The notes under the pieces are model-generated. The model did no database searches. It worked only from the letters and a program-made list of their open reading frames with translations, and was not told where the DNA came from. Position numbers and translations under genes: made by a program. 64,000 nucleotides of DNA from a virus. Where the stretch lies: IMG/VR virus record IMGVR_UViG_3300045973_000529, positions 32,001 to 96,000 of that record; one strand, given 5' to 3'. This document shows positions 3,736 to 21,264 of this stretch, in pieces (position 1 is the first letter of the stretch; each line of letters begins with the position of its first letter).

Positions 3736-4731
3736 ATGGACCACATCGAATCTGGTGAACTGAACAACGACTTCCGCACCTGCCTGTACCGACTGAACGA
3801 GTTCGGCATGGAAGCACATCCGCGTGGCACAACAACGAAGGAGCTGCTGAACTACAACATCAGCCTCTTCAACCCGCGGAACCGCATCGTGACCTTCCCT
3901 GACCGGAAGACGAACCTGAAGTACCTGCTCGGTGAGTTCATCTGGTACATCAGCGGTTCGAACGACCCGAAGGGCATTCTCCCGTACGCCAAGTTCTGGG
4001 ACAGCATCCGGAACTCTGGTTCGGAAGAAGGCTACGATGCCGGTACCATCAATTCGAACTACGGCAATCGCCTGTTCGGACACAGCGATCTGCCAGCCTT
4101 CTCAAAGTGGGATCACCGCGGCAATGCGACAGGTACCCTCAGTCAGTGGATCGAGACGGTGTTGTTGCTGGAACGTGACAAGGACAGCCGCCAGGCGATC
4201 ATGAACATTCACGTGCCGTCTGACCGGCACGAAGGCAACAAGGACGTGCCTTGCACATTGACGCTGCACTGGTTCATTCGCGAAGACAAGCTGCATCTGA
4301 TCGTGAACATGCGCAGCAACGACGTGGTCCTGGGCTTCACGAACGACGTGTTCCAGTTCACGATGCTCCAGGAGATGATGGCCGTTCAGCTTCGTGAAAC
4401 ATACCCGAACCTCGAGCTTGGCTGCTACTACCACAACGCCGGGTCCATGCACATCTACGATCGACACTTTGCCATGGCCGAGAAGATCATCGCTGATGAG
4501 CGAGCTCTCGAGATGGCGATGGTTCCGATGGATGTGTGCAATGACACGATCCTGACTGGGCTCGTTGGTGTCGAAGCGGCCTGGCAGGCGGCTGGCGCTC
4601 CTTCAGTCTTCGACTTCGACACCATCCCGGCTTGGGACCTGTTGACACCATACTGGCAGAACCTGGTCCTGATGTGCTTTGGCGAAGATGAAGAAGCCAT
4701 GCACAAGGTGTTTGGTATCGAGGAGCACTGA
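3736..4731 (+). CDS. Thymidylate synthase-superfamily dCMP hydroxymethylase-like enzyme (T4 gp42 type specificity)
   Basis: EFIWY, INSNYG, SRQA, catalytic PCT, MRSNDVVLGFTND (Asp where ThyA has Asn, cf. T4 gp42 RSNDVVFGFRND), GSMHIY. Confidence 0.85.
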   Translation: MDHIESGELNNDFRTCLYRLNEFGMEAHPRGTTTKELLNYNISLFNPRNRIVTFPDRKTNLKYLLGEFIWYISGSNDPKGILPYAKFWDSIRNSGSEEGYDAGTINSNYGNRLFGHSDLPAFSKWDHRGNATGTLSQWIETVLLLERDKDSRQAIMNIHVPSDRHEGNKDVPCTLTLHWFIREDKLHLIVNMRSNDVVLGFTNDVFQFTMLQEMMAVQLRETYPNLELGCYYHNAGSMHIYDRHFAMAEKIIADERALEMAMVPMDVCNDTILTGLVGVEAAWQAAGAPSVFDFDTIPAWDLLTPYWQNLVLMCFGEDEEAMHKVFGIEEH

Positions 4732-4732
4732 C

Positions 4733-5116
4733 ATGACACGTCCCGTTTACTCCGTTTCCGTTGAACAGCTTGTGAAGGCCTTGGAAGCGGCTGGCATGGT
4801 CTTTGATCATGAGGAAGTTGACAAGGCCATTGCAGTTGCGGCTCAAAAGCTAGCTGATCAGATCGACGAGGAGATCTTCCAGGAGCTCGTCAAGAAGACG
4901 CCGCCAATCAGTCATGAGTACTATGAGGAAGTCACCGTCGGCGTTGATGCTCTCTGGAAGAAGCTCAAGGTGCTTAACCCATACGACAGTGGCAGCTCTC
5001 TTCACGTTGCTGAGGAGCGCTATGAGCTCGATGGTGTAAAGTACGTTGCGTACTGGGAGATCTGTGGCGATTCAGACGTACCAGAGATCTGCATCATCAA
5101 GGAGTACAAGCGATGA
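4733..5116 (+). CDS. Hypothetical protein
   Basis: ATG directly after the upstream stop; phage-like codon usage. Confidence 0.75.
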   Translation: MTRPVYSVSVEQLVKALEAAGMVFDHEEVDKAIAVAAQKLADQIDEEIFQELVKKTPPISHEYYEEVTVGVDALWKKLKVLNPYDSGSSLHVAEERYELDGVKYVAYWEICGDSDVPEICIIKEYKR

Positions 5117-5283
5117 CCAATCCGCAATACAAGTGCCCGAACTGCGGCGGGCACTGCACTGTCGATCAGATGGGTGCTGACTACTGCATCGTGTCTGAAG
5201 AAGGCGATGAAGCCTGGTGCAACTACATCTGTCCACACTGCGAGACCTGGCAAGATCTCGCCGACTATGAAAAGCTCACATGA
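5113..5283 (+). CDS. Small Zn-ribbon protein (56 aa; CPNC...CPHC)
   Basis: Below the track cutoff; ATGA overlaps at both ends. Confidence 0.75.
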   Translation: MTNPQYKCPNCGGHCTVDQMGADYCIVSEEGDEAWCNYICPHCETWQDLADYEKLT

Positions 5284-7028
5284 GATACGAACAACAGATC
5301 CTCGAGGCGTATGATCGCCTTGGGTTCAAGCCACGCGGACGTCAGGTCGAGGACATCGACAAGATCATGCGGGCTTTCCTCGATGACGGCTTCAAGACTG
5401 TGGTCTTGTCTGCGCCAACTGGCACTGGCAAGTCCATCATCGGTGCCGTCGTCGCTGAAGCGATCCACAAGATCAAGCACCCTGACATGACTGCAGGCGC
5501 CTCGTTCCTGTTGACCCCGACCATCGTTCTGCAGGAGCAGTACCAGAAGTCGTTCGCGTCTCCTGATCCTCTGGACACGAAGTTCCGCCTCATCAAGGGC
5601 GCTGGGAACTTCGAGTGCTCTGCCTTGAGCACACCCTCTGAGATGCAGACGGCTGAGTCGTGCGCAGTCCGGATCTTCCAGAAGGAGAGCATGTTCTCCA
5701 TGATCAACGAGCACTGCGATAGCTGCTTGTTCTCGCTGCAACGCAAGATGCGTGATCGTGCCCGGCACCTGATCTGCAACTACAGCTACTACTTCATTGA
5801 TCGCATGTTCATGGAGCTCCTCGCTCAACGCACCGTGTGCGTGTTCGACGAAGCGCACTTGATCAATGATTTGTTTACCGAGCACAACGCGATCTACTTT
5901 TCTGATTCGCGCCTCAAGAAAATGGTCGAGGAGATCAACGAGACACTTTCTTTGGTCGACCCATCGGTGTTCAAGCTGCTGCAAGAGGTGTGCGGCGATC
6001 TGATGCAGGGCGAGATCAACGATCAGAACTACATGGACTCGTTGGTCAAGTTGGCCGATGCGTACGGTCAGATCTGCGAGGCTGCGAACAACCAGGCCGA
6101 GCGAGCAATTCACGACCACAAGAAGTACCTGAAGCTGTCGAAGCTGTCCAAGAAGTACCATGGCCTTGGCTGCAAGATCGGTGACCTGCTCGAGTATGGC
6201 TACCCACACGCGTTCGAGTTCAAGGAGCGGAACCCGAAGTTCAACCAACACGAGAACGAGATCAGCGTCAAGCCGATCTTCGTGGGCGACATGTTCGACA
6301 AGCTCATCAACGCGGAGTTCAACCTGCTGATGAGTGCCACGTTCTCCAAGCAGTACGCTGAACGGACTCTGACCCTCGAGAACAGCACACACATTCGGTT
6401 GGCACCGTCCTTTCCGAAGGAGAACAAGAAGGTCGTGTTCTTCAAGCCGCAGAAGCTGTCATTCGATACGATGAAGGACCCGAAGGTCGTGAAGCAGCTC
6501 CAGGCGACGTGCTACGAGATTGTTGCGCATCACGTGTCCCTGGGTGAACGAGGGATCATCCTGGCACCTTCGTTTGCGATTGTGGAAGGGATTACACAGG
6601 CCCTCGAAGGAGCCAACGTCGGTGCCCGGATTTTCGAGCACCGACGCGGTGAAAAGCTGGCTGAGGTGATTGGGCGGTTCACGAGGTTCAAGGATGGTCC
6701 AGCAGTGCTACTGACTCCATCTGGGTTCGAAGGTCTCGATCTGGCCGGCGATCTGTCGCGGTACCAGATCATTGTGAAGGCGCCGTTCGGGTCCCTTGGT
6801 GAAGCACGCATGAAGAAGATCCTGGCGAACTGGCCAGACATCTACTCACTGCTCTGCACTATGAAGCTGGTCCAAGGTGCTGGTCGCTCAGTGCGTGGTC
6901 CTGAAGACTGGGCTGTCACATATATGCTCGACAGCAACATCCAACGACTCTGGACCGCGAAGAACATGGAATGGGCCGATGAGTTCCAGACCTCCTTCAC
7001 CTCCTTCCTAGGAACCAGCGACGACTGA
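5280..7028 (+). CDS. DinG/XPD-family SF2 helicase
   Basis: APTGTGKS, CNYSYY, FDEAH, MSAT, GFEGLDL, QGAGRSVR; Cys cluster at the Fe-S domain position. Confidence 0.9.
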   Translation: MRYEQQILEAYDRLGFKPRGRQVEDIDKIMRAFLDDGFKTVVLSAPTGTGKSIIGAVVAEAIHKIKHPDMTAGASFLLTPTIVLQEQYQKSFASPDPLDTKFRLIKGAGNFECSALSTPSEMQTAESCAVRIFQKESMFSMINEHCDSCLFSLQRKMRDRARHLICNYSYYFIDRMFMELLAQRTVCVFDEAHLINDLFTEHNAIYFSDSRLKKMVEEINETLSLVDPSVFKLLQEVCGDLMQGEINDQNYMDSLVKLADAYGQICEAANNQAERAIHDHKKYLKLSKLSKKYHGLGCKIGDLLEYGYPHAFEFKERNPKFNQHENEISVKPIFVGDMFDKLINAEFNLLMSATFSKQYAERTLTLENSTHIRLAPSFPKENKKVVFFKPQKLSFDTMKDPKVVKQLQATCYEIVAHHVSLGERGIILAPSFAIVEGITQALEGANVGARIFEHRRGEKLAEVIGRFTRFKDGPAVLLTPSGFEGLDLAGDLSRYQIIVKAPFGSLGEARMKKILANWPDIYSLLCTMKLVQGAGRSVRGPEDWAVTYMLDSNIQRLWTAKNMEWADEFQTSFTSFLGTSDD

Positions 7029-7035
7029 ACCCAAA

Positions 7036-7060: not shown

Positions 7061-7063
7061 GGA

Positions 7064-7069: not shown

Positions 7070-7075
7070 GCACCT

Positions 7076-8221
7076 ATGACGAAGAGACACCTTTCAACCG
7101 TTGCTGCCAACGTGCTACGAGAAATCAAGCGCGAAGCTGGTCGGGATCGCCGATCACGGCGTTGGCTGTCTGACTGTGAACACCACGAAACTGAATTGGA
7201 TGCACGTATGGACGATCCTGACATCTTGAATCCGCTGAACACCCCATCTGAAGGTGTGATCTTCGGGACCTATGGTCCTGACGAGTGGGCCACAGCAACG
7301 TTTCTGCGTTCAGCGATGGAGCAGGGCAAGAACACCCTGATCGTCGAAGGTACGTGGATCACTCCAGCAAGCTGGACCCTGCATGAGTTCGTGCTGAGCA
7401 TCACCGAGCGCTTCAACTTCATGAGCGACAAGCGAGCCCTCGTGTTCTGGCCGTGGGGCGTTGGCGAATGCACCGTGTCCCGTGGCAAGCTGCACTTCGA
7501 GCTGAACGGTTCACCGTCCGAAGTGATGGCCCTCGTGAAGAAGCTCGATGGGCAGCTCAAGCGTGCTGAGAACCTGATCGAGTGGGTGTACGGCGCGCAC
7601 GGTGAAAGCACCAGCGTTCCGCTGAACTACCGCCCTGCCATCAATGCCGCGTACCCTTGGCTCGAGAAGCCGGTGCTCGAGTTCATCGATGACTACCTTG
7701 ACAGCAAGGCCAGCGTCATCATCCTCATCGGCCCGCCTGGCACCGGCAAGACGACGTTCATCAAGAACCTCATTCACCGCTCGGGTGGTGATGCCAAGGT
7801 CACGTACGACGAGAAGATCATGAACAGCGACTCGCTGTTCGCGAACTTCATCGAGAGCGAAGAGCGCTTCCTGATCATGGAAGATGCTGATGCATTCCTC
7901 GGTGCTCGTGAAGACGGGAACACGATGATGCACCGGTTCCTGAACGTGTCTGATGGCCTCATCAGCGCTGAAGGCAAGAAGCTGGTGTTCAGCACGAACC
8001 TGCCGAACATCCATGACATCGACACCGCGCTGCTGCGTCCTGGTCGCTGCTACGCAATCGTTGAGTTCCGCTCGATGTCGCGTACTGAAGCTCAAGCGGT
8101 GCTCGATGAAATTGGCGCCGATCGCGATCTGCCTGATGGTGACTCCTTCACGCTCGCTGAGCTGTTCAACGTACAGCCGAACGGCGAGACCCAAGCAACG
8201 CGACGTGTCGGGTTCTTCTGA
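7076..8221 (+). CDS. AAA+ ATPase
   Basis: GPPGTGKT, IMEDAD, STN, DTALLRPGR. Confidence 0.9.
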   Translation: MTKRHLSTVAANVLREIKREAGRDRRSRRWLSDCEHHETELDARMDDPDILNPLNTPSEGVIFGTYGPDEWATATFLRSAMEQGKNTLIVEGTWITPASWTLHEFVLSITERFNFMSDKRALVFWPWGVGECTVSRGKLHFELNGSPSEVMALVKKLDGQLKRAENLIEWVYGAHGESTSVPLNYRPAINAAYPWLEKPVLEFIDDYLDSKASVIILIGPPGTGKTTFIKNLIHRSGGDAKVTYDEKIMNSDSLFANFIESEERFLIMEDADAFLGAREDGNTMMHRFLNVSDGLISAEGKKLVFSTNLPNIHDIDTALLRPGRCYAIVEFRSMSRTEAQAVLDEIGADRDLPDGDSFTLAELFNVQPNGETQATRRVGFF

Positions 8222-8520
8222 TGGCCGGTAAGATCATCTCATCTCGGCCAGGCAGCGAGGCCGTTGATCTTGAACTGAACTCGCTGTCAATCGCTGAGCT
8301 GCAGTTGATCGGTGCGTATTTGTGGGTCACACGCCTTGGGCGAGGCGTGACCCCGTATCGGGACGCCGCGTTCACTCTGATGACTAAGATCAACAATCTG
8401 ATGGGTGACGACTTTCTTGAGCATGCAGCGATCGATGTCGACATGGTCGTTGACATCATCGATTCGAACGGGGCGGTGACCCGATCCGTTGGACAACACT
8501 TCGTGGAGATTGACCTATGA
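8221..8520 (+). CDS. Hypothetical protein
   Basis: Stop/start overlaps on both sides. Confidence 0.75.
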   Translation: MAGKIISSRPGSEAVDLELNSLSIAELQLIGAYLWVTRLGRGVTPYRDAAFTLMTKINNLMGDDFLEHAAIDVDMVVDIIDSNGAVTRSVGQHFVEIDL

Positions 8521-9095
8521 CAGCGAACAAGTTCATGATCGAGGGCCTTGACCGCCTTGGCAAGGATACCCTCATCAACGGTATCCAGCACAAGCTCGGG
8601 TACCATCAGGTGCTGCACTTCTCGAAGCCACAGGTGCTCGAGTGCTACCACCCGAAGGACGAGAACGACCCAACTGTCGATCGTCGTGAATCACTGCGTC
8701 GCTACCAGGAAGCGAGCTTCCGGAACATGTTCTCCATCTTCCGTGATGCGAAGTACGCGCATCTGATCGCGAACCGCGCGCACCTCGGTGAGTGCGTCTA
8801 TGCGCCACTCTATCGTGGCTACTCGGGTGACTACGTGTTCGACATGGAGCGTGCCTTCATGGTCGGCATGTATGGCCTGCGACTGGTGCTTCTCATCGAG
8901 GACTTCGAGATCGCCGAGCACTTCATCGATGATGGTGACTCGTTTGACATCACCAAGCGCCGTCTCGAGCAGGAGTACTTCATCACGGCCTATCAGAAGT
9001 CGTGCATTCCCGACAAGCGCATCGTGTGCGTCACTGATCCTGGTACTGGTGGCTTCAAGCGCCCCGACTGGATTCTGAGCGAGGTGCTGGCATGA
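8517..9095 (+). CDS. dNMP (thymidylate-kinase-like) kinase
   Basis: P-loop EGLDRLGKDT; NRAHLGECVYAPLYRGY corresponds to the DR..S..VY lid/substrate motif. Confidence 0.8.
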   Translation: MTANKFMIEGLDRLGKDTLINGIQHKLGYHQVLHFSKPQVLECYHPKDENDPTVDRRESLRRYQEASFRNMFSIFRDAKYAHLIANRAHLGECVYAPLYRGYSGDYVFDMERAFMVGMYGLRLVLLIEDFEIAEHFIDDGDSFDITKRRLEQEYFITAYQKSCIPDKRIVCVTDPGTGGFKRPDWILSEVLA

Positions 9096-9358
9096 ACACT
9101 GAGCAGCTTTTTCGTGCAACGCTGCAGAAGCTGGCGGCCGAAGGCGTCCAGGACGCTGTGCTGGCTCTGAAGCTCGCTGAGTCGATCTCGCTGCCGCCTG
9201 CTGTGCGGGTGGCGATGATCAAGAACGAGCTGCATGAGGCGCACACCTCGCTCTTGGAGGCGCTCAAGCAGAATGACATCGACTGGAGCCGCACCACCGA
9301 CAGACACATCAACCGGGCGTTGAGCAACATCGCTCGGAGCATTGGGGAACTGGCATGA
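9092..9358 (+). CDS. Hypothetical protein
   Basis: ATGA overlaps. Confidence 0.75.
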   Translation: MNTEQLFRATLQKLAAEGVQDAVLALKLAESISLPPAVRVAMIKNELHEAHTSLLEALKQNDIDWSRTTDRHINRALSNIARSIGELA

Positions 9359-9483
9359 CCAATCCCGCTTGGGTGGTCGCAGCCATTGGGTGCGGCTTGA
9401 TTGGCTACCATTTTCAATCATGGCAACTGGGGCTCGGCATCTACATGTGCATCGCTGGGCTCGGCAACTGGATCATCTCATGA
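9355..9483 (+). CDS. Small hydrophobic membrane protein (42 aa)
   Basis: Not in the track; coupled by ATGA at both ends; two hydrophobic stretches. Confidence 0.7.
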   Translation: MTNPAWVVAAIGCGLIGYHFQSWQLGLGIYMCIAGLGNWIIS

Positions 9484-9929
9484 CTCTCATCGAACAAATC
9501 CGCACCGAGTACTTGGTACTTCGCAAGGCGCACAACACCGCGGCGGTTGCGTCCCTCAGCACCCTGATCGGTGAAATCGAGAACCTTGCCAAGGGCGGTA
9601 AGGGTGAACTGACCGACGCAGTGGTCGTCACTGTCGTCAAGAAGTTCATCAAGAACATCGACGAGACCCTGCAGGTGGTCGGTAAGGGCGCACCAACTGG
9701 CTTGACCGCCGAGTACAACCCGCTCAATGCGCTGAACGCTGAACGTCGGCTGTATGAGCAGTTCCTGCCGAAGCAGCTGACCGAGACCGAAATCGCGGCG
9801 CTGATCGACACGCTGGTCGTGACGCATGGTGCCAAGAACGTCGGCGACGTGATGAAGCTCCTGAAGCAGAATCACGCTGGCACCTATGACGGTGCCGTCG
9901 CTTCCAAGATCCTCAAGGCCAAGTTCTAA
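9480..9929 (+). CDS. GatB/YqeY-domain protein
   Basis: LTDAVVVTVVKKFIK, ERRLYEQFLPKQLTE, VGDVMK, YDG pattern; start moved to ATG 9480. Confidence 0.85.
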   Translation: MTLIEQIRTEYLVLRKAHNTAAVASLSTLIGEIENLAKGGKGELTDAVVVTVVKKFIKNIDETLQVVGKGAPTGLTAEYNPLNALNAERRLYEQFLPKQLTETEIAALIDTLVVTHGAKNVGDVMKLLKQNHAGTYDGAVASKILKAKF

Positions 9930-10319: not shown

Positions 10320-10456
10320 ACCCTCTGCACGAGCTCGAGAAGGCCATGGCTATGGTCTTCGCTGCTGACCCAGGTTGGTGGTGGATGCTGTGTCTAATCC
10401 CGATGGCTGCTCTGGTGGCAGCCATCATCGTTGAGAACTTCTGGAACGACAAATGA
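10316..10456 (+). CDS. Small membrane protein (46 aa, GTG start)
   Basis: Not in the track; GTGA/ATGA overlaps; one TM-like segment. Confidence 0.65.
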   Translation: MNPLHELEKAMAMVFAADPGWWWMLCLIPMAALVAAIIVENFWNDK

Positions 10457-11577
10457 AGATTGCAGTAATCAAGTTGGGTGGTCGCATCACCTGGAACACG
10501 GACGGAGCAGTTGCTCCAGGTGAAGCCGTTTCGATCTGCAAGGCCCTGTCTCGCGGTGGGGCTGAGGTGCATGTCTTCACGAAGATCCTGTCAAAGGATG
10601 TACTGCATCCCAGCCTCATGTGGCACAACATCGCTGAAGCCGATCAGGCGGATCTTGATGCGCTCGACAAGCTGGTGGTGATCAACGGGAACGTGAACTT
10701 CTTCGGCGGTGCCGAGGATCCCGAGCAGATCCTGAACTACTCGATCATCAACAACTTCCAGGGCACAGTCGTGTACGTGATGTGCGACCCCGAGCTGCCA
10801 CTGCTGCAGATCTGGCCGAACGTGTCGAAGAAGCCATGGGGCGTGAACTACCGCGAGAAGGATCTGAACATCGTGCGCAAGGACATCCGTGTTCTGTCGC
10901 AGCCGTTCAATCTGGAAGCGATGAAGAAGCACTGGAAGAAGGGTGCCGTTCCGGTCGCCGAGTTCTTCCACTTCCCGATGGAGCGCTTCCCGCTGCTGAA
11001 TGAGTGGCTGAAGCCGATGGAAGAACCGAAGGTGGACTTGCTGTACGGCGGTACACCTCGCGGTGGTCGTCGGATCCCCAATCTGTTCAAGTGGTACTGG
11101 AACCTGCCGAAGGACATCAGCGTCGAGATCTTCGGGTCCATCGATGCTGACGACTTCTCCAAGCACCCGAAGGTCGGCATGACGGCGTTGATGGACAAGA
11201 ACGTTCGCCCGCCCGAGTTCACTGGCAAGGTCAAGTATGATCAGGTTCTTCCGAAGATGAACACCGGTCTGGCGCATCTCGTCACTGGTGACGGGTCGTA
11301 CGAAGAGCTCGACATCATTCCACAGCGCACGATGGAGAACATCGCGGCTGGAAACGTCGTGTTCGTCGATGCGAACATGGACAAGGCTCGCCGCATCTAC
11401 CCGAAGGGCACGTTCGCGCACGAGTTCCTGTACGTCGCCAGTCAAGAAGAGCTCGTCGAGCGGCTGCGGTACGTGAAGGACGATGAGATGCTGCGACAAG
11501 ACGTGCTGCAGTCGCAGTGTTTTGCCCAGGACTTCGCACCTGATGAGTTCTGTCGTTCGCTGGTGGAGGTGCTGTGA
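10453..11577 (+). CDS. DNA glycosyltransferase, T4 beta-glucosyltransferase (GT-B, GT63) homologue
   Basis: Colinear with T4 BGT as recalled: MKIAVI, VINGNVNFFGG, CDPELP (catalytic Asp), WPNVSKKPW, EFFHFPME, YGGTPRGGRR, PEFTGK, GDGSY, QRTME. Confidence 0.88.
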   Translation: MKIAVIKLGGRITWNTDGAVAPGEAVSICKALSRGGAEVHVFTKILSKDVLHPSLMWHNIAEADQADLDALDKLVVINGNVNFFGGAEDPEQILNYSIINNFQGTVVYVMCDPELPLLQIWPNVSKKPWGVNYREKDLNIVRKDIRVLSQPFNLEAMKKHWKKGAVPVAEFFHFPMERFPLLNEWLKPMEEPKVDLLYGGTPRGGRRIPNLFKWYWNLPKDISVEIFGSIDADDFSKHPKVGMTALMDKNVRPPEFTGKVKYDQVLPKMNTGLAHLVTGDGSYEELDIIPQRTMENIAAGNVVFVDANMDKARRIYPKGTFAHEFLYVASQEELVERLRYVKDDEMLRQDVLQSQCFAQDFAPDEFCRSLVEVL

Positions 11578-11873: not shown

Positions 11874-11902
11874 TTGCCTATCGTTTCTGCGCTAGGTACA
11901 AT
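11874..11902 (+). promoter_or_regulatory. Sigma70-like promoter TTGCCT-N17-TACAAT (TGTAAC at 11909-11914)
   Basis: Canonical spacing upstream of the kinase gene. Confidence 0.7.
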
Positions 11903-11924
11903 GGCACCTGTAACAAGGACACCC

Positions 11925-12614
11925 ATGTTCAAACGACCAACTCTCGTCTCCATCACAGCACCCACTTGCGCTGGCAAGAACTACCTCGCTGAGGTGCTGT
12001 TCGCAAATGGCTTCAATCGGCTGGTGAGCACCACTGACCGTGCACCTCGGGCCGGTGAAATCGAAGGGGTGCACTACTTCTTCATCACCACTGAGCAAAG
12101 CAAGCTGAAGGAACAGTACGATCTGTTCGCTGAATTGATCACGTACAACGGCGTTCGGTATGGCGTCACGAAGGAAGAGATGGAGCGCAAGACTGCGGTC
12201 GGACTGCCACCACCCGTCGTGATTCTCGAACCGCAGGGTGTGTTCGAGTACCGCAAGTACTGCCAGGCGAACGGCATCGACATGTTCCGCATCTTCATTG
12301 ACACGGCCGAAAGCGTGCGCCTTGCTCGCCTCGCGAAGCGTGGCGCTGCTGACGTCATTGCGGCGCTGAAGAACGTGACTTTTGATCACGCGCCAGCTGA
12401 GGGCGAAGCTGATGCCGTTGCTCTCGAAGCCGTGGCGAACGTCATGAAGGTGAACAACAAGCGCGTCATGGCGATCATTGAGCAGGAGCGGACCTGGGAC
12501 ACAGCTCACCTCTGGCACTCAATCGTCGATGGTGAAGACACGGATGTGGCACTTGCGCAGATCAAGGCCGACATCGAATACCGGAACAGCCACCCATTCG
12601 ACTTCAACGCATGA
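11925..12614 (+). CDS. Guanylate kinase-like nucleotide kinase
   Basis: APTCAGKN, VSTTDRAPRAGEIEGVHYFF, YNGVRYG; start at ATG 11925 with SD aagga. Confidence 0.85.
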   Translation: MFKRPTLVSITAPTCAGKNYLAEVLFANGFNRLVSTTDRAPRAGEIEGVHYFFITTEQSKLKEQYDLFAELITYNGVRYGVTKEEMERKTAVGLPPPVVILEPQGVFEYRKYCQANGIDMFRIFIDTAESVRLARLAKRGAADVIAALKNVTFDHAPAEGEADAVALEAVANVMKVNNKRVMAIIEQERTWDTAHLWHSIVDGEDTDVALAQIKADIEYRNSHPFDFNA

Positions 12615-13096
12615 GAGTCATCACCGCTCCTGATCCAGTGCCGATGCGCGATGCGCTTGGGACCGAGGTCTTCCTTGCTGGCTCGATCGAGCAGGGCAAG
12701 GCGCGCGACTGGCAGCCAGAGGTCTGTGCCGCGCTCGTGCCGTTCAATGCGCTCGTGTTCAATCCTCGGCGCTTGGTCTGGGACCCGACCTGGGATCAAG
12801 ACGTCTCGAACACAGAACTCGTGACCCAAGTGAACTGGGAGCTCGATCTGATTGACCGAGCTGAGATCGTGTTCTTCTACTTCCAAGCTGGAACCTTGTC
12901 GCCAATCTCGTTCCTCGAGTTCGGCATGCAGGTGCGCAATCGCCGCAAAGACATCGTTGTGGTTTGTGAAGCCGGGTTCTGGCGGCAGGCGAACATCCAA
13001 ATCACTGCTGCCCGAAACAACGTGCCAGTCGCTCTGACCCTTGAAGAAGGCATCGAGAAGCTGGTCAAGCTTGTGAAACAACGGAGTCTTCCATGA
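12611..13096 (+). CDS. Nucleoside 2-deoxyribosyltransferase-like / nucleotide N-glycosidase
   Basis: VFLAGSI, FNPRR, QVNWELDLIDRA, SPISFLEFG. Confidence 0.8.
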   Translation: MRVITAPDPVPMRDALGTEVFLAGSIEQGKARDWQPEVCAALVPFNALVFNPRRLVWDPTWDQDVSNTELVTQVNWELDLIDRAEIVFFYFQAGTLSPISFLEFGMQVRNRRKDIVVVCEAGFWRQANIQITAARNNVPVALTLEEGIEKLVKLVKQRSLP

Positions 13097-13341: not shown

Positions 13342-13400
13342 TGTAACAGTTCCAGAAAACTGTTACGGGCTGTGTACGAACACGGCGGCGGTGTTAAGAT
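13342..13400 (+). promoter_or_regulatory. Promoter GTGTAC-N17-TAAGAT with an upstream GTAACAG...CTGTTAC inverted repeat
   Basis: -10 ends 7 nt before ATG 13408. Confidence 0.65.
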
Positions 13401-13407
13401 GCCTAGC

Positions 13408-14919
13408 ATGAACACCGCCTTCCTCCCCTCCCCGCAGCAAGCAACCTTCTTCTCGTGGATCACGGATGACACCGGATCCTGCGTGCTGGAAGCAGTTGCT
13501 GGTTCTGGTAAGACCACGACGTTGATTCAAGCGCTGAACCTGATGGTCGGCCAGGTTTTCTTCGGCGCGTACAACAAGAAGATCGCCGAGGAAATCGCCG
13601 CTCGCGCTCCCCAGCGCCAAGGCCTCTTCGTGAGCACGATGCATGCTGCCGGCTTCAAGGCCTGGCGCCGCGCTGCTCCTCGCGTCCAAGTGAACGGCGA
13701 CAAGTGCCGCGACATCTTCCGCTTCGCCTCTGACCAGTACCCCGAATACACGCCGTTCGAAGGCCCGGTGCTCCAGCTCGTCTCGCTGGCCAAGCAAGCT
13801 GCCGTCGGCATCTCCAAGCCGGCCGGTCAGCGTTCCACCTGGACGGACCTGATCGATCACTTCGACATCGAGTGCTTCGACGAAGCCACCAGCACGGACA
13901 ACACCGATCTGATCATCAAGCTCGCTCGCAAGACCCTCGAGCGTTCCATCGAGCGTGACAACGACGTCGTTGATTTCGACGACATGATCTACGCGCCGCT
14001 GGTCCACAACGTCAAGATGTTCCAACACGACTGGGTGCTGATCGACGAAGCCCAAGACACGAACGAATCGCGTCGTCTGCTGGCTCTGCGCATGTTGAAG
14101 AAGGGTGGTCGCCTCGTCGCTGTTGGTGATCGTCACCAAGCGATCTACGGCTTCACCGGTGCTGACAGCGACGCGCTCGATCTGATCGCTCGCGCTGTGA
14201 ACGCCAAGCAACTGCCGCTGACCACCACGTTCCGCTGCCCGAAGGCCGTCGTCTCGTACGCTCAACAGTGGGTCAGCCACATCCAATGCGCCGAAACCGC
14301 TCCGGAAGGCGTCGTCTCGACCGCTCTGCCGGCTGATCTCGCGACCATCGCGCAGCCTGGTGACGCGATCCTCTGCCGCTTCAACGCGCCGCTGATCAAG
14401 TACGTGTACAAGTTCATCGCCGCTGGCATCCCGGCCAAGGTCGAAGGCCGCGAAATCGGCAACGGCCTGAAGACGCTGGCACGTCGCTGGAAGGTGCGCA
14501 AGCTGACGTCGATGCTCGACAAGCTGGAAACGTACCTCGAGCGTGAAGTCGCCAAGTACGTCGCCAAGGAGCAAGCTTCCAAGGCGTCTGCTGTCGAAGA
14601 CAAGGTGAATTGCCTCCGCGTCATCATCGAGCGCGTGCTCAAGATCGATCCGGATTGCACCAACCCGGTCGTTCGCGTCTGCCAAGAAATCGACGCGATC
14701 TTCACGGAAGACGGCTCTGCCAAGGTCGTGCTGTTCAGCTCCATCCACAAGAGCAAGGGTCGTGAATGGCACAAGGTTGTGTGGCTCCAGACCGGTCCTT
14801 CTGGTTGGGCTCGCATGGCTTGGGAACAAGAGCAAGAAGTGAACCTCTGCTACGTCGCCGCTACTCGTGCCAAGCACGAGCTGGTTCTGGTCGACATCAA
14901 GAACGACGACAAGGAATGA
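13408..14919 (+). CDS. UvrD/Rep-like SF1 helicase
   Basis: AVAGSGKT, DEAQD, VGDRHQAIYGF, SIHKSKGREW, YVAATRAK. Confidence 0.92.
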   Translation: MNTAFLPSPQQATFFSWITDDTGSCVLEAVAGSGKTTTLIQALNLMVGQVFFGAYNKKIAEEIAARAPQRQGLFVSTMHAAGFKAWRRAAPRVQVNGDKCRDIFRFASDQYPEYTPFEGPVLQLVSLAKQAAVGISKPAGQRSTWTDLIDHFDIECFDEATSTDNTDLIIKLARKTLERSIERDNDVVDFDDMIYAPLVHNVKMFQHDWVLIDEAQDTNESRRLLALRMLKKGGRLVAVGDRHQAIYGFTGADSDALDLIARAVNAKQLPLTTTFRCPKAVVSYAQQWVSHIQCAETAPEGVVSTALPADLATIAQPGDAILCRFNAPLIKYVYKFIAAGIPAKVEGREIGNGLKTLARRWKVRKLTSMLDKLETYLEREVAKYVAKEQASKASAVEDKVNCLRVIIERVLKIDPDCTNPVVRVCQEIDAIFTEDGSAKVVLFSSIHKSKGREWHKVVWLQTGPSGWARMAWEQEQEVNLCYVAATRAKHELVLVDIKNDDKE

Positions 14920-15471: not shown

Positions 15472-15555
15472 ATGTTCACTCATCTTCTCCAAACCCGCAC
15501 CCAGCGCTGTCCGCACGGGGTGTCCCATCTGAACCGCTGCCTGAGGTGCGACTGA
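15472..15555 (+). CDS. 27-aa Cys/His microprotein (RCPHGVSHLNRCLRCD)
   Basis: SD gagg; its TGA overlaps ATG 15555 (TGATG). Confidence 0.5.
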   Translation: MFTHLLQTRTQRCPHGVSHLNRCLRCD

Positions 15556-17096
15556 TGCCTGAAATCTCACGCTGGGAGAGAACTCCCAACACGACCATGA
15601 AGGTCTTCTCCAAGCTGTTCGTCGGCGTTCGTGACGGCGGTGCTGCGCATGTTCCGCTTGGGTTCGCAACTCCGTACGAGGAGAACGCCGCGGGTCGCAA
15701 GCGCCAGGAGACCGTGGTGAACTGGCTCGGCGGCACCAGTCGTATCGTAGTCGATCCCAAGACTGGGTTGTACGAGCAAGACGACAAGGGTCGATACGTC
15801 TACGAGGAGTTCGTTCCGGACACGCGCATCATCGACAACGAACCCTGTCCCGGTTTCAAGATCACGGACGATGTGAAACGGGTGTACTGGGGCGGTGGCA
15901 ATGTCGTCTGGCGCGTTGAAGACCCGCGTGGTTACGAGCTCGAGATCCAGTCCCAGAACTTGATGGCGCTGATCCAGTCGTGCGGCATCCTCGAGGGCGG
16001 TGAAATCCCAGGTCGCTGCGTCTGGGGCCGCTCAAGTGGCGACAACATTCTGCTGCACGAGACCAGCGACGAGTACAAAGCTGCCTTCAAGGCCGCCGAG
16101 ACCCTCAAGGCGCCGAAGAAACTCGGCAAGAAGGATCGTCGTGTCGGTGGCCTGTACACCCGAGTCGACGGCTCCCTCGGCATCTATCTCGGCATCGTGC
16201 ACGTCACGGTGATGAACTACCCGGCACAAGATGGTGCACTCGCGCTTGCCCGAAACTGGGATGCTTCAGAGACGGACTGGTTCAAGGCACCTGGTATGCT
16301 TCAGCCGGTCGCGGTGTCCACCTCCAACTACCCGGTGATGTCCAGCGTCGAGTACGAAGCAGTGCTGGACATCACCTCGGTGCTGGATGACAAGGACCGC
16401 CCGACGCCTGGTGTCACGATGAAGCTCTACAAGCAGGCACCGCTGGTCGCTGATGAAGGCGAGACGTACGATCTGGCCATCACCAACGAGTACCTGCGGG
16501 ACCTGCAGTGGACGTTCGCCAGCTCGAACACCTTCTGCGCCCGGATCCTGGCAGTGACGACGTCTCCGATCAAGAATCCGCTGGTGGTCGCCGTGCCCTG
16601 GGCGGCGACGAAGTACGACGCCAAACTGACACAGTTGGAGAGGTACGTCGCCCAGAACTGCACTCGCGAGATCACCTACAAGGACGAAGGCACGTTCCGT
16701 GCTCGTTGGCCAGCGACTCAGATCCTGGGCTATCAACACACTGATGTGCTCATCGTTCCAGAGCTTGGCCCGATGTCCGACATCGAGCACATTGGCGAGG
16801 ATCGTCAGTACATCACCCGTGGCGTGGCAGCGGCGCCTGATTCATTGACGGTGGCGCTGCCATGCATGCTCGGTGCCGGGTACTTCATCCATCGTGGCGC
16901 TGAAGATAGCCGGCACGCCATGCAAGTGCGCTCGTACATGTACTCGCGGTACTCCTACCCAGCCAGCCGCGAAGTCAAGGCGTACGTGCTGCCGAAGTTC
17001 TCAACCGCGGACGAGTTCATCGACTGGTTCAAGGCGCAGTACAATGATGGAAACCTCTCCACGATCTCGGTCGTGGAGGACTCCCGCTCAACCTGA
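15555..17096 (+). CDS. Large hypothetical phage protein
   Basis: Long ORF; N-terminal PLGFATPY...WRVEDPRG.ELEI block of a kind seen in large-phage hypotheticals. Confidence 0.8.
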   Translation: MPEISRWERTPNTTMKVFSKLFVGVRDGGAAHVPLGFATPYEENAAGRKRQETVVNWLGGTSRIVVDPKTGLYEQDDKGRYVYEEFVPDTRIIDNEPCPGFKITDDVKRVYWGGGNVVWRVEDPRGYELEIQSQNLMALIQSCGILEGGEIPGRCVWGRSSGDNILLHETSDEYKAAFKAAETLKAPKKLGKKDRRVGGLYTRVDGSLGIYLGIVHVTVMNYPAQDGALALARNWDASETDWFKAPGMLQPVAVSTSNYPVMSSVEYEAVLDITSVLDDKDRPTPGVTMKLYKQAPLVADEGETYDLAITNEYLRDLQWTFASSNTFCARILAVTTSPIKNPLVVAVPWAATKYDAKLTQLERYVAQNCTREITYKDEGTFRARWPATQILGYQHTDVLIVPELGPMSDIEHIGEDRQYITRGVAAAPDSLTVALPCMLGAGYFIHRGAEDSRHAMQVRSYMYSRYSYPASREVKAYVLPKFSTADEFIDWFKAQYNDGNLSTISVVEDSRST

Positions 17097-17103: not shown

Positions 17104-17178
17104 ATGAAACTCGACTCCATCTGGTTCGTGATCCTCATCGTGTCGATCATTGCCCTCTTCTTCATTCCGCACCTGTGA
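17104..17178 (+). CDS. 24-aa single-TM microprotein
   Basis: MKLDSIWFVILIVSIIALFFIPHL fills the intergenic gap. Confidence 0.6.
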   Translation: MKLDSIWFVILIVSIIALFFIPHL

Positions 17179-17185
17179 GACCCCC

Positions 17186-17653
17186 ATGCGCTTCTACTCC
17201 TTCGTGAACGCTCTGTACCTCAACCCCATTCAGTACGGCATCCAGACGGCGCACTGCGTCTCCGAGATGGCCGTCGACGTTGCTCGCACTTCGCTGAATG
17301 CGGTCTTCTACGACTGGGCCGAGAACCACAAGACGATCATCATCTGCAATGGCGGCAATGTCGCCATGCTCGAGGACCTGTACACACAGCTCATCGATCC
17401 GACAGATGCATTTGGTCTGCCCCTCGTGAAGTTCTACGAGGACGAGCAGTCGCTGAACGGGGCGCTGACCTCGGTGGCGCTCATCGTGCCGGCGAAGTTC
17501 TACGACGCGAAGTTCGTGCCGGATCCGACGTCACCGCATGAACTGTCCGGGGTGTACCAGTACATCGACCCCGATGGCCGCACGACACGGTACTCGATCG
17601 ACACTCCTGAGTTCCAGTTCATTCAGCTGCTCAAGTCCTTCAGGCTGGCATGA
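17186..17653 (+). CDS. Peptidyl-tRNA hydrolase 2 (PTH2)-like protein
   Basis: GIQTAH, W....KTIIICNGG, FYEDEQSLNGALTSVA pattern. Confidence 0.7.
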   Translation: MRFYSFVNALYLNPIQYGIQTAHCVSEMAVDVARTSLNAVFYDWAENHKTIIICNGGNVAMLEDLYTQLIDPTDAFGLPLVKFYEDEQSLNGALTSVALIVPAKFYDAKFVPDPTSPHELSGVYQYIDPDGRTTRYSIDTPEFQFIQLLKSFRLA

Positions 17654-17886
17654 CTCCGCAACTGCCACCAAACCCGATGACCATCACGCCACCCGTGAAG
17701 ATGATGCTCACGGCGGACGGTGTGCTCGCGATGTTCCAAGGCCGCAGACTGGATGCCTCGCTCTTCGCCGATGTGAGGGCCGAACTCCAGAACCTGCGGG
17801 ACTGGGACAACTACTTCCGTACTACCGATTCGCTGCGTGAGGGTGCCAAGCGTGCGCTCCATCGCATTCTTGATCAGGAGCCTTGA
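17650..17886 (+). CDS. Hypothetical protein
   Basis: ATGA overlap. Confidence 0.7.
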   Translation: MTPQLPPNPMTITPPVKMMLTADGVLAMFQGRRLDASLFADVRAELQNLRDWDNYFRTTDSLREGAKRALHRILDQEP

Positions 17887-18326
17887 TGTACAAGAACCCA
17901 ACCCCAGTCGCAGTGGCCCTCATCCGTGTCGGTGACGCCGACATCAAGCTCATCGCTGGACGCCGAAGCATCGAGCCGTTCATCGGCGGACTCGCGTTTC
18001 CTGGCGGGTACGTGAACGAGGGCGAAAGCGCCGAGGTGGCCGTTGCTCGCGAAGTCTACGAGGAGATCGGCATGGTCACCGAGCCAGGGCACTGGCGGCC
18101 AATGCTGACTCGTGTCACGCCTGACAACAAGCTCCTGATCTTCATGCGACACATCTTCACGCTGACGACTGCCCAGTACGTCGAGAACGTGCGAAGCCTC
18201 TTCATCGTCGCCAACAACTTCACGCCGAACACTGAAGTCTCGGAGCTGGTGCTGGTTGACACCGGCGACACCCTGTGCTTCCCCTTGCACCAGGAACTTC
18301 TCGATCGTAAGCCTCTATGGGAGTGA
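17883..18326 (+). CDS. NUDIX hydrolase
   Basis: Nudix box PGGYVNEGESAEVAVAREVYEEIG. Confidence 0.92.
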   Translation: MMYKNPTPVAVALIRVGDADIKLIAGRRSIEPFIGGLAFPGGYVNEGESAEVAVAREVYEEIGMVTEPGHWRPMLTRVTPDNKLLIFMRHIFTLTTAQYVENVRSLFIVANNFTPNTEVSELVLVDTGDTLCFPLHQELLDRKPLWE

Positions 18327-18544
18327 CCTACGACATCACCCAGGCACCACCTGGTGCCACGCACGTACTGCCAGCTGACCCGCTCGGATTTGACCAGCAG
18401 CCGACGTGGATGAAGTGGGGTTACGCCTTCACAGGGCCTGAGTCTGGTCGGGCGTTCTACCGGTGGTACAGCTGGGACCGTGGTGAGTGGCGTCCTGACA
18501 ACAGCTTCCACCCGCGTGAGAACACGGTCATCCACAAGCTCTGA
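18317..18544 (+). CDS. Hypothetical protein
   Basis: Overlaps the NUDIX stop. Confidence 0.7.
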   Translation: MGVTYDITQAPPGATHVLPADPLGFDQQPTWMKWGYAFTGPESGRAFYRWYSWDRGEWRPDNSFHPRENTVIHKL

Positions 18545-18571
18545 ACCGACCTAATCCCGGAACCGGGAGGA

Positions 18572-18595
18572 GTAACGGCTAGGTTCGGTTACAAT
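18572..18595 (+). promoter_or_regulatory. GTAAC-N11-GTTACAAT promoter/operator (-10 TACAAT at 18590-18595)
   Basis: Same GTTACAAT junction as at 3702. Confidence 0.55.
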
Positions 18596-18621
18596 CTATG
18601 CATACCCACCAAGGAGCCAGC

Positions 18622-19251
18622 ATGGACAATCACCTCGCCGTTCAATGTATCGATCGCCAGATCGCTGCCATCTCCCGCCTGCACGCCGTGATCAACACGA
18701 ACGAGTACCACTCAATCCTCAGCGCCGTGACTGCGGTTGCGAAGGATGGGTACAAGCGCCGTGTCATGATCGCAGGGGTCGGCAAGAACAGCAACATCGC
18801 CTCCAAGATCAGCGAGACGATGGCCAGTCTCGGCATCCCCTCGTTCTACCTGAACGTCAGCCACTGCGGTCACGGTGACTTCGGTTTCATCGGCCACGAG
18901 GACCTCATCATCCACATCAGCCGCTCGGGCACGACACGCGAAATGGTCGAGGCGATGAGCCACATCAAGAAGATCCGTCCACAGGTCGTGCAGGTCCTGA
19001 TCCACTGCAAGCCGAACAAGCCAGTGAACAACGATGCCGACATCGAGCTCTTCATCGGCGCAGTTGCTGAAGGCGACGAGTTCGAGCTCGCGCCGACCAC
19101 CTCCACAACCGCGTTGCTCTGTACCCTCGACACGATCTCGGTACAGGTCTCGCACGCCATCGGCTTCAAGCGCCTCGACTTCCTGAAGTTCCACCCGGAT
19201 GGCGCACTCGGTGCGATGCTCAAGGCTGAACAAACCAAGGACACTCAATGA
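18622..19251 (+). CDS. D-arabinose 5-phosphate isomerase-like SIS-domain protein (KdsD/GutQ family, no CBS domains)
   Basis: GVGKN, HGDFG, SRSGTT, LAPTTSTT, DFLKFHPDGALG; start at ATG 18622 with SD aaggag. Confidence 0.9.
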   Translation: MDNHLAVQCIDRQIAAISRLHAVINTNEYHSILSAVTAVAKDGYKRRVMIAGVGKNSNIASKISETMASLGIPSFYLNVSHCGHGDFGFIGHEDLIIHISRSGTTREMVEAMSHIKKIRPQVVQVLIHCKPNKPVNNDADIELFIGAVAEGDEFELAPTTSTTALLCTLDTISVQVSHAIGFKRLDFLKFHPDGALGAMLKAEQTKDTQ

Positions 19252-19421
19252 ATTGCATCAAGTGTGGGAAGTCGATCTTCGAGATCGGTGCATTCCTTAC
19301 CCGCGTGAATGACAAGGGCGGGAACGGCATCTGGGAATGCAGCCCCTCGTGCGCTGCTGAGCTCACCCAAGAGCAAGCCCTGCTTGCTGCCGTCGAAGGT
19401 CCTGAACAGGAACCGAAATGA
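19248..19421 (+). CDS. Small Zn-binding protein (57 aa; CIKC...CSPSC)
   Basis: Not in the track; ATGA overlaps at both ends. Confidence 0.7.
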   Translation: MNCIKCGKSIFEIGAFLTRVNDKGGNGIWECSPSCAAELTQEQALLAAVEGPEQEPK

Positions 19422-19603
19422 TCTACGCAACACCAGTGACCGAGCACGGCGAGCGGTCAGTGCATCTCATCTGCACGAACGAGGAAATCGGCATCATCTC
19501 AAATGAGCTCGGTGAGCACGCATTCTATGCGCATGACACAGTGCCGCTTACACTCGACCTGCTCGAAGCTGTTGCCAACTTTCTGAGGACACTCAACGTA
19601 TGA
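19418..19603 (+). CDS. Hypothetical protein
   Basis: Coupled at both ends. Confidence 0.7.
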   Translation: MIYATPVTEHGERSVHLICTNEEIGIISNELGEHAFYAHDTVPLTLDLLEAVANFLRTLNV

Positions 19604-21264
19604 ACCTCGTCATTGTCGCTGGGGGCCTTGGCTCCCGCCTAGCCCCGCTCACAAACTTCATCCCTAAGTTCCTCGTGAACATTGGGAAGGAGACCGGGTT
19701 CGTGAAGATGTTGGAATACTGGCGTGAGTACCAGCCCGAGTCGATCACTGTGATCGTCCACAGCCGGTACAAGGGCTTGGTGCAAGCGTACTTCGATCTG
19801 TATTTCAAGAACGATCCACTGATGAAGACATGGTCGGATGACGGTGAAGAAATCCGTACTCCGTTCATCATCAAGACGGTCGACGAAGCGAACGGCTCGG
19901 CGCACGCGATCATGACGACTTGCGGTGATCATCTGAACAAGCAGCCAGTCCTGTTCACTTGGTGTGATGTGATTCCAGGCGAGTCCTTCGACATCGAGGA
20001 ACTGAACCACGGCGGCGCCTTCGCGTTCACGAACTATGACTACCCGAACAGGTACGACCTGGTTCAACCAATGGTGGCGCCGGATGCGCCAAAGCTCGGC
20101 TGGGCTGACCGTGTGCCAGCCATTCGGTCAGATGGTCGTGGTGGTCTGTTCGGCGTGTACTACGTCAGCACCTTCGAGAAGAAGCCCTTCACCGATGGTC
20201 AGGACTTCGTCGAGCTGCTTGGGCGGTACTCGCACCGTGGCTTCGTGTACGAGGTCAAGATGCCGAGCATTGTCGACTTCGGCGACATGCCAAAGCTCGA
20301 GCGTGTTCGCTCAACAGCCGATGCAGCTCGGTCCTTCAACTCGGTCAAGATGCACGGTGACCTCGTGCTCAAGAGCGCGCTGACAGCACAGGGCGAAGGT
20401 CTCATCAAGCGTGAAGTCGCTTGGTACAGCGAGCTCGATGCGATGCAATCGACTGTCCGTCGGCCGAAGCACTGGGCGAGCTCTGATGGCACGTCGTTTG
20501 TGATGTCGAAGGTCAAGGGCGTACCAGTCTGGGAACAGTGGTCGAAACTCGACGATGACGGTCGTGCAATGGTGCTGTCACGCATCTTCGAGCAGCTCGA
20601 TACGCTGCACTGCCACAAACGCGAGGTCGGTACAGTCCAAGTCCAGACCGACATTCGTGTCGAGGCGTACGACAAGCTCATTGCCAGGTACGACGAGATC
20701 AAGCCGATGATCGATGCCTTCGGCCCAGTGCAGTGGGTGAACTGCCACAAGCTCGAGTGCCTCGATCCGAAGGTCACGATCAAGCGCTTGTACGGGGAGT
20801 TGGCAAAGCAGTACAGCACGTCACTGCACAGTTTGATCCACGGTGACCTGCAGATGTCGAACACGATGATCGATCCTGACACCCTTGAGGTGACGCTGAT
20901 CGATCCACGTGGGTACTTCGGCAAGAGCACCACCTATGGTTGCGCTGATTACGACATCGCGAAGCTGTTGTACTCGCTCAGCGGCTACGATCTGTTCAAC
21001 TACTCGAAGGACTTCCATCTGATCCACAATGGGCTGGGCAGCGTTGGCGACGGGAGTCAACAGTGGTTCATCCAGTTCGACATCCCAACACCCAACACGG
21101 GCGGATGTCAGCCGATCTTCGAGCAGCGCTTCACGCGTGTTCACCAGCTCTGGTTGGCCGTGATCTGGATCGGGCTGGCGCAGTACATCAAGAACGACCC
21201 AGTGAAGTCGGTTGCGGCGCACTACCACGGTTTGGCCATGGCCGAAAGGATCCTTGCATCATGA
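19600..21264 (+). CDS. Nucleotidyltransferase fused to an APH/choline-kinase-like domain (NDP-sugar synthesis)
   Basis: AGGLGSRLAPLT..IPK, WCDVIP; C-terminal IHGDLQMSN, IDPRGYFG, YDIAK. Confidence 0.9.
   Translation: MNLVIVAGGLGSRLAPLTNFIPKFLVNIGKETGFVKMLEYWREYQPESITVIVHSRYKGLVQAYFDLYFKNDPLMKTWSDDGEEIRTPFIIKTVDEANGSAHAIMTTCGDHLNKQPVLFTWCDVIPGESFDIEELNHGGAFAFTNYDYPNRYDLVQPMVAPDAPKLGWADRVPAIRSDGRGGLFGVYYVSTFEKKPFTDGQDFVELLGRYSHRGFVYEVKMPSIVDFGDMPKLERVRSTADAARSFNSVKMHGDLVLKSALTAQGEGLIKREVAWYSELDAMQSTVRRPKHWASSDGTSFVMSKVKGVPVWEQWSKLDDDGRAMVLSRIFEQLDTLHCHKREVGTVQVQTDIRVEAYDKLIARYDEIKPMIDAFGPVQWVNCHKLECLDPKVTIKRLYGELAKQYSTSLHSLIHGDLQMSNTMIDPDTLEVTLIDPRGYFGKSTTYGCADYDIAKLLYSLSGYDLFNYSKDFHLIHNGLGSVGDGSQQWFIQFDIPTPNTGGCQPIFEQRFTRVHQLWLAVIWIGLAQYIKNDPVKSVAAHYHGLAMAERILAS

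Follow-up and report, generated by a model that had tools for sequence, protein, structure and literature searches.

Gene content and origin of the cluster

The genes discussed here lie in a stretch of 64,000 nucleotides (the window, to which all positions refer) corresponding to bases 32001-96000 of a 190,499-bp viral record of IMG/VR (IMGVR_UViG_3300045973_000529), which CheckV rates as about 52% complete. Between positions 3736 and 21264, the window harbors a cluster comprising a paralogue of thymidylate synthase (TS), two nucleotide kinases, a homologue of the T4 β-glucosyltransferase (BGT), an arabinose-5-phosphate isomerase and a fusion of a nucleotidyltransferase with a kinase (Table 1). 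As judged from its genes, this cluster encodes a pathway for the hypermodification of cytosine, with 5-hydroxymethylcytosine (5hmC) as its basis, and the phage DNA probably carries an arabinose-decorated 5hmC, a base that has so far been confirmed in no virus.

The search with Pfam and phrog profiles recovered every gene named in an earlier note on this DNA, on the plus strand and at or near the place where that note had put it. The separate, canonical ThyA, which would keep up the dTMP supply, was also recovered. The dNMP kinase proposed at position 8517 is indeed a P-loop kinase, but its likeness to thymidylate kinase (TMK) is weak. The central idea of the note, that is, a hybrid between a T4-type BGT and an RB69-type NDP-arabinose module, holds at the gene level, and the combination is conserved across a clade of jumbo phages.

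Table 1. Genes of the cluster and the separate ThyA, with the matches on which their assignment is based.
Feature	Position	Strand	Match or remark
TS homologue, predicted dCMP hydroxymethylase (5hmdCMP synthase)	3736-4731	+	PF00303, 84.9 bits
Helicase	5280-7028	+ strand block	interspersed in cluster
AAA ATPase	7076-8221	+	between TS paralogue and BGT
TMK-like P-loop kinase, putative 5hmdCMP kinase	8517-9095	+	phrog_761, E 7.8e-6; PF02223, E 0.042
YqeY-like protein	9342-9929	+	between TS paralogue and BGT
BGT homologue	10453-11577	+	PF09198, 99.2 bits; phrog_7922, E 3.5e-55
Guanylate-kinase-like nucleotide kinase	11874-12614	+	PF00625, 48.5 bits; phrog_1815, E 1e-27
Nucleoside 2-deoxyribosyltransferase-like protein, possible nucleotide N-glycosidase	12611-13096	+	PF15891, 93.6 bits
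Helicase	13372-14919	+ strand block	interspersed in cluster
516-aa open reading frame	15546-17096	+	no Pfam domain
"Hydrolase" (phrog_3668), peptidyl-tRNA-hydrolase-2 fold	17150-17653	+	AlphaFold and Foldseek
MutT-type NUDIX protein, possible dCTP pyrophosphatase stand-in	17883-18326	+	PF00293, 42.5 bits
Arabinose-5-phosphate isomerase (SIS domain)	18598-19251	+	phrog_5670, E 1.4e-71; PF01380
Nucleotidyltransferase and APH-type kinase fusion	19600-21264	+	PF00483 and PF01636; phrog_4098, E 8e-106
Canonical ThyA, outside the pathway	33162-34118	+	PF00303, 327 bits

The virus is a jumbo phage akin to the Ralstonia phage RsoM2USA (MG752970, 343.8 kb), whose BGT is the closest in GenBank to that of the window (39.5% identity); the GC content of the window is 55-61%. 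When the 17.5-kb region was compared by megablast with the phages of GenBank, no match at the nucleotide level was obtained. Closer relatives, of 310-342 kb, are present in IMG/VR, and one of them (G002, 342.6 kb, with direct terminal repeats) is rated complete. The present record (G000), the records G002-G007 and the fragment L006 are hereafter referred to as the ara-clade. As for the environment of the phage, one pond metagenome contains, as assembled contigs, 97% of the words sampled from the stretch, and two freshwater runs share 5-6% of the words.

The modified base and the BGT homologue

The best solved relatives of the TS paralogue are the CMP hydroxymethylase MilA and the T4 dCMP hydroxymethylase gp42. 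Its sequence was aligned with T4 gp42, RB69 gp48, DLP3 gp80, RsoM2USA ORF10 and the ThyA of the window. In this alignment the motifs KDVPCT and MRSNDVVLGFTND of the paralogue supply Cys146, Asp143, Asp169 and Asp177 (ThyA numbering), that is, the pattern of T4 gp42, whose counterpart motifs are SDFMCT and MRSNDVVFGFRND. The window ThyA has Leu143, Asp169 and Asn177, and both RB69 gp48 and DLP3 gp80 carry Asn at 169, reading MRSQN. According to published rules, Asp177 makes the enzyme specific for cytosine, and acidic residues at position 143 are associated with a hydroxylated and not with a methylated product; moreover, the arabinosylation of RB69 and DLP3 starts from 5-hydroxycytosine (5hoC), with a TS homologue bearing the diagnostic Asn169 (Lee et al., NAR 2026, PMC13326640). 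This D169N mark of the synthases of 5-hydroxy-dCMP (5hodCMP) is absent from the paralogue of the window and from those of its seven clade relatives, which all have Asp. Indeed, MRSND...ND is kept in 8/8 TS paralogues of the clade, that of RsoM2USA reads MRSQD...ND, and Asp169 is kept in all the outgroup TS genes adjoining BGT homologues. Since Asp169 is retained, the predicted product of the paralogue is 5-hydroxymethyl-dCMP (5hmdCMP) and not 5hodCMP, and 5hmC is predicted over 5hoC. Thus, of hmC and hC, both named in the earlier note as possible carriers of the sugar, the former is predicted and the latter is not.

It might be argued that the paralogue makes a different nucleotide (5-methyl-dCMP, 5hodCMP or a new C5 derivative) and that the BGT homologue acts on that. 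Indeed, the paralogue is 19-30% identical to characterised enzymes, it bears a C-terminal extension of about 80 residues that is absent in T4 gp42, and the residue-based call of its product rests on one published diagnostic (PMC13326640). However, by the rules of the same study Asp143 and Asp169 argue against a methyl-transferring and a hydroxylating enzyme, respectively. In addition, BGT-family enzymes have so far been tied to 5hmC acceptors only, and the same TS signature stands beside BGT homologues in all of the 18 loci examined, so that we regard a different base as very improbable.

In the proposed pathway, the TS paralogue would convert dCMP into 5hmdCMP, which the two phage kinases and the host NDP kinase would then raise to the triphosphate, to be incorporated by the phage polymerase. 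The TMK-like kinase, the putative 5hmdCMP kinase, is 47% identical in G002, and its gene lies approximately 0.4-3.6 kb upstream of BGT, both in the records of the ara-clade and in a number of outgroups, RsoM2USA among them. Throughout the clade, and in some of the outgroup, a conserved gene for the guanylate-kinase (GMK)-like enzyme follows downstream of BGT, and we infer that this enzyme also takes part in the pathway. The closest solved chain of the PF15891 protein, a possible nucleotide N-glycosidase, is the uncharacterised 4mcj; of the seven other loci of the ara-clade, five contain this protein, whereas none of the outgroup flanks does. The nearest solved chains of the NUDIX protein are NTP/CTP pyrophosphohydrolases and MutT, and its participation is uncertain because it was not detected at the G003 locus. 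The AAA gene is present in all the ara-clade loci and in none of the outgroup flanks.

The score of the BGT homologue with PF09198 far exceeds the cut-off of 27 bits, reaching 101.2 bits in a six-frame search, and phrog_7922 covers its residues 1-355, i.e., its full length. The alignment with T4 BGT is end to end, with 30% identity, and E22, D100, R191, R195, G257-D258, Y261, R269 and E272 of the T4 enzyme are conserved, with S189 replaced by Thr. We take E22 and D100 to be the catalytic residues (D100 being the base), and S189, R191, R195, R269 and E272 to bind UDP. The columns of E22 and D100 (E24 and D112 in the window protein) are invariant in an alignment of 10 sequences. The stretches YGGTPRGGRR and PQRTMEN of the window protein align with YGGSFRSGQR and TLRVWET of T4, with Arg and Glu kept and Ser replaced by Thr. 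These features mark the homologue as a UDP-sugar-dependent GT-B enzyme of the BGT family. It is also the sole glycosyltransferase that profile searches (GT1, GT1_4, GT2, TAGT, AGT and GT9) detected in the 190-kb record.

Activated-sugar genes and their distribution

The isomerase shares 50% identity with RB69 gp55 (E 1.7e-61) and 49% with DLP3 gp83. The fusion enzyme aligns with DLP3 gp82 over 562 columns with 33% identity (residues 5-498 of 553, E 8e-81), whereas RB69 gp53 and gp52 match it as two pieces. It keeps the nucleotidyltransferase motif GxGxRLxPLT..PK as well as the kinase motifs HGDxxxxN and IDPRG, and is predicted to be a bifunctional sugar kinase/UDP-sugar pyrophosphorylase, homologous to AfhE, DLP3 gp82 and RB69 gp52:53. 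In HY126, AfhE phosphorylates arabinose-5-phosphate and yields UDP-arabinose, after the HAD phosphatase AfhF has stripped the 5-phosphate (PMC13326640). In parallel with the synthesis of the nucleotide, therefore, two steps can be envisaged: the isomerase would turn ribulose-5-phosphate into arabinose-5-phosphate, and the fusion enzyme, by analogy with its homologues in HY126, RB69 and DLP3, would lead to UDP-arabinose.

The distribution of these genes follows that of one group of BGTs. The earlier note had proposed to look for co-occurrence across relatives, and this was borne out: BGT and the fusion enzyme are found together in the 7/7 large records of a single BGT clade (G000 and G002-G007), a combination absent from all the outgroups. 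More precisely, if the record is large enough, the isomerase/fusion pair accompanies every BGT that shares 61% identity or more with that of the window, and it is absent where the BGT is at most 50% identical, among others in RsoM2USA, in LR756500, in the 96%-complete G021 and in the T4-like Acinetobacter phage AB1I1M-1. Maximum-likelihood analysis places all eight BGTs of the ara-clade (including that of L006, a 13.7-kb fragment ending short of the sugar genes) in one clade with 100/100 support, the stem of which measures 1.11 substitutions per site.

As regards the gene order, the pair constitutes the end of the plus-strand block of nucleotide-metabolism and replication genes, an order kept in those relatives in which the sequence flanking BGT extends as far as the pair (G002, G003, G004 and G005). 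A wider core consists of the TS, helicase, TMK-like kinase, BGT and GMK-like kinase genes, and RsoM2USA and LR756500/G021 hold TS, kinase and BGT together. Since the genes are syntenic in the relatives and present in all the seven large records of the clade, a chance juxtaposition is ruled out. Besides, the confinement of the pair to a single BGT clade with a long stem suggests that the arabinose genes were added once, to a 5hmC-BGT pathway that already existed. AB1I1M-1 has a BGT/glucosyltransferase pair between the DNA polymerase and the gp40/helicase genes, which is the site of the arabinose cassette in DLP3.

The arabinose genes might in principle serve a process unrelated to DNA, such as the glycosylation of the virion or of the host surface, or the pools of 3-deoxy-D-manno-octulosonate (KDO) or lipopolysaccharide, the DNA then carrying glucosyl-5hmC made by the BGT homologue from host UDP-glucose. 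Indeed, KDO synthesis likewise begins with an arabinose-5-phosphate isomerase, neither a dedicated arabinosyltransferase nor a HAD phosphatase was detected (see below), and the donor site of the BGT homologue looks unaltered. However, the pair closes the very block that contains the TS paralogue and BGT, as it does in G002-G005, and it appears exactly in the BGT subclade with the long stem branch. Moreover, where the isomerase and the fusion enzyme were studied in phages, their role is DNA arabinosylation (PMC13326640). On this basis, we consider a role outside DNA improbable.

Transfer of the sugar and comparison with known systems

A remaining question concerns the enzyme that uses the activated sugar. 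It is likely, in our opinion, that the virion DNA carries a glycosyl-5hmC containing arabinose, whatever the route. In the pathway that we propose, the BGT-family enzyme, the sole transferase of the cluster, would move the sugar onto the hydroxymethyl group in DNA, and we prefer the idea that it takes the phage-made UDP-arabinose directly, to give arabinosyl-5hmC. This preference is due to the fact that, where the supply of UDP-arabinose is conserved, the enzyme using it would be expected to be conserved too and to be clade-specific, as the BGT homologue is; nevertheless, we rate such a direct transfer as slightly short of an even chance.

The earlier note had regarded it as a refutation of its idea if an RB69-type arabinosyltransferase encoded at another site of the genome accounted for the sugar module. 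The outcome was negative: a tblastn search with five RB69 and DLP3 arabinosyltransferases (gp46:47 and gp3; gp79, gp76 and gp77) at E <= 0.1 found none in G000 or in the complete G002, the comparison standing at the BLAST level only, given that these enzymes belong to no Pfam family. TAGT (PF20691) was found in no clade genome, and the comparison by hhalign of the BGT alignment with the RB69 and DLP3 arabinosyltransferases was not significant.

The 516-aa open reading frame of the cluster was considered as a hidden transferase and discarded. It has no Pfam or PDB sequence match, and its AlphaFold model (pLDDT 85) is almost all-beta, with no Foldseek match at E <= 0.001; the best VIA Z is 5.9, for a small MazF/SH3-like barrel at residues 194-333. 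The family is widespread in large phage contigs (103 matches, none with a Pfam domain), and one homologue, ORF11 of RsoM2USA, adjoins the TS paralogue there, while another lies downstream of UvrD in G007.

A second route, which involves two sugars in sequence, has to be weighed against direct transfer. The BGT homologue would add β-glucose from host UDP-glucose, and a second transferase, GT4-like or unrecognised, would add arabinose, giving arabinosyl-glucosyl-5hmC. The donor-site residues of the homologue are the same as in glucosylating BGTs, and a candidate for the second step is a GT4-like GT-B gene of 357 aa in G002 (G002:C1:237597-238667, minus strand; PF13692 up to 29 bits in relatives). 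Its orthologues are 49% identical to it in G003, 38% in G006 and 41% in RsoM2USA (ORF80). By synteny mapping, the region of G002 that contains this gene is not covered by the present record, so the present phage may also have it. Furthermore, the chain-extending arabinosyltransferases of RB69 and DLP3 are likewise GT-B enzymes of about 370 aa resembling GT4 (PMC13326640).

Further transferases, not common to the relatives, occur in single records, namely a GT1_4 in G003 (G003:C1:93576-94697, 38.6 bits in a six-frame search) and a GT2 in G005 (G005:C1:39391-39885, 86 bits), and hint at lineage-specific additional sugars. The two-sugar route would also be analogous to the addition of a second glucose by TAGT in T2/T6 and to the chain extension in RB69 and DLP3. 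However, the GT4-like gene does not track the arabinose genes, since RsoM2USA has it without them; in G005 it is disrupted by a frameshift, whereas the isomerase, the fusion enzyme and BGT of that record are intact, so that this relative can dispense with it; it is known from relatives and not from the present 190-kb record; and the comparison of its family with RB69 gp3 and DLP3 gp76-77 by hhalign is not significant (E 0.054). For the first two of these reasons, the GT4-like gene fits less well than BGT as the user of arabinose, and we judge the two-sugar route to be plausible but less likely than direct transfer.

Several points, on the other hand, weigh against a direct transfer of arabinose by the BGT homologue. 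First, all the mappable catalytic and UDP-site residues of T4 BGT are unchanged in it. About ten substitutions are fixed specifically in the clade, such as that of T4 I256 by Thr beside the Gly-Asp motif, but none is interpretable, and a literature search for the glucose-contact residues of T4 BGT yielded nothing usable for reading donor specificity. The sequence of the BGT homologue thus demands no switch away from UDP-glucose. Second, the GT4-like enzyme of the near-complete relatives could be the one that uses the arabinose.

Third, no HAD phosphatase was found by tblastn with RB69 gp51 and DLP3 gp81 in G000 or in the complete G002, nor did the HAD profiles PF13419 and PF13242 find any in six clade records; DLP3 gp81 itself barely matches Pfam, so that a remote phosphatase analogue could escape a profile search. 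Hence, the sugar may be a different one, or a host enzyme may be needed. Fourth, a profile search of the 190-kb record revealed no dCTPase of the gp56/MazG type; canonical dCTP could be excluded by the MutT-type NUDIX protein or by the PF15891 protein. Finally, the record is incomplete, and its sequence is known from assembled pond-metagenome contigs alone. Every chemical step of the pathway, and above all the donor of the BGT homologue, rests on inference from sequence. The more far-reaching form of our proposal is that the BGT has switched its donor from host UDP-glucose to phage UDP-arabinose and that the clade, which consists of freshwater jumbo phages, without a HAD phosphatase, replaces cytosine with 5-(arabinosyloxymethyl)cytosine; we advance it as a tentative possibility, held a little less firmly than direct transfer itself.

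Two other proteins were considered in connection with the phosphatase. The product of the gene annotated as "hydrolase" by phrog_3668 was examined as the missing enzyme and rejected: its AlphaFold model (pLDDT 94) was matched by Foldseek to Pth2/Bit1 (1q7s, 1wn2; E ~3e-4), and the protein is probably related to translation and extraneous to the pathway. Its gene is conserved in the relatives, between UvrD and the sugar genes. A macrodomain protein is encoded approximately 0.8 kb downstream of ThyA (34934-35425, plus strand) and is conserved in G002; it matches the PDB entries 2afc, 2fg1 and 5e3b, with E values down to 1e-15, and phrog_335, labelled "phosphatase". Macrodomains act on ADP-ribose derivatives, and any link of this protein with the missing sugar phosphatase would be pure speculation.

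The comparison with the known systems brings out two halves, one resembling that of T4 and the other that of RB69. With T4, the cluster shares the active-site pattern of gp42 in the TS paralogue, the catalytic and UDP residues of BGT and the adjoining phage nucleotide kinases. However, it contains the activated-pentose genes (isomerase and fusion enzyme), of which T4 has none; a gp56/MazG-type dCTPase, an α-glucosyltransferase and TAGT were not found here; and the kinases are TMK- and GMK-like and not gp1-like, in a GC-rich jumbo phage and not in a member of the Straboviridae. With RB69, DLP3 and HY126, it shares the isomerase, the fusion enzyme with the same motifs, a TMK-like kinase and a TS-family enzyme, all in one block. 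In contrast, the TS has Asp169, which predicts 5hmC, where theirs has Asn169, leading to 5hoC, and no homologue of their arabinosyltransferases or of their HAD phosphatase was detectable here. Besides, RB69 and DLP3 were reported to be devoid of BGT/AGT homologues (PMC13326640), whereas a BGT is present in this phage.

RsoM2USA possesses the TS paralogue, the TMK-like kinase, BGT, the 516-aa protein and the GT4-like gene, but it lacks the isomerase/fusion pair and presumably relies on host UDP-glucose; the paper describing it lists the BGT and TS genes and makes no comment on modification. Precedents for sequential sugars are the gentiobiosyl-5hmC of T2/T6, made by α-glucosyltransferase and then TAGT, and the galactosyl-glucosyl-5hoC of Rhizobium phage RL38J1, in both of which the sugars and the first transferase differ from those considered here. 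Taken together, T2/T6 and RL38J1 are also precedents for the phage-encoded supply of an unusual UDP-sugar. A survey of T-even-type transferases published in 2026 handles BGT and the arabinosylation clusters separately, and our literature search found no paper describing genes for UDP-arabinose in combination with a BGT and a synthase of 5hmC.

The arabinosylated phage DNAs known so far are based on 5hoC and on dedicated arabinosyltransferases, and the known BGT phages use host UDP-glucose. An earlier claim of arabinosyl-5hmC in RB69 has since been revised to arabinosyl-5-hydroxycytosine. The lineage described here therefore predicts, from halves of two known systems, a DNA base unconfirmed in nature. 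If the prediction is true, it would represent a new natural base, as well as a natural change of donor or a re-wiring of the pathway in the family of BGT, which is itself in wide use for the labelling of 5hmC. Defences directed at glucosyl-5hmC or arabinosyl-5hoC (GmrSD-type, Brig1-type) would be expected to fail against such a base. Even though the phage is uncultured, the prediction can be tested with three cloned genes.

As for the other genes of the window, a full-length enzyme of the alanine dehydrogenase/PNT family (PF01262, 270 bits; PF05222, 148 bits) is encoded at 25732-26829 on the plus strand and represents an auxiliary metabolic gene. Just upstream of ThyA, the segments 30838-32273 and 32542-33123, both on the plus strand, encode two consecutive DnaJ-domain proteins, one of them with a DnaJ C-terminal domain, and a circularly permuted YpsA protein of the SLOG family (PF12694, 92 bits).

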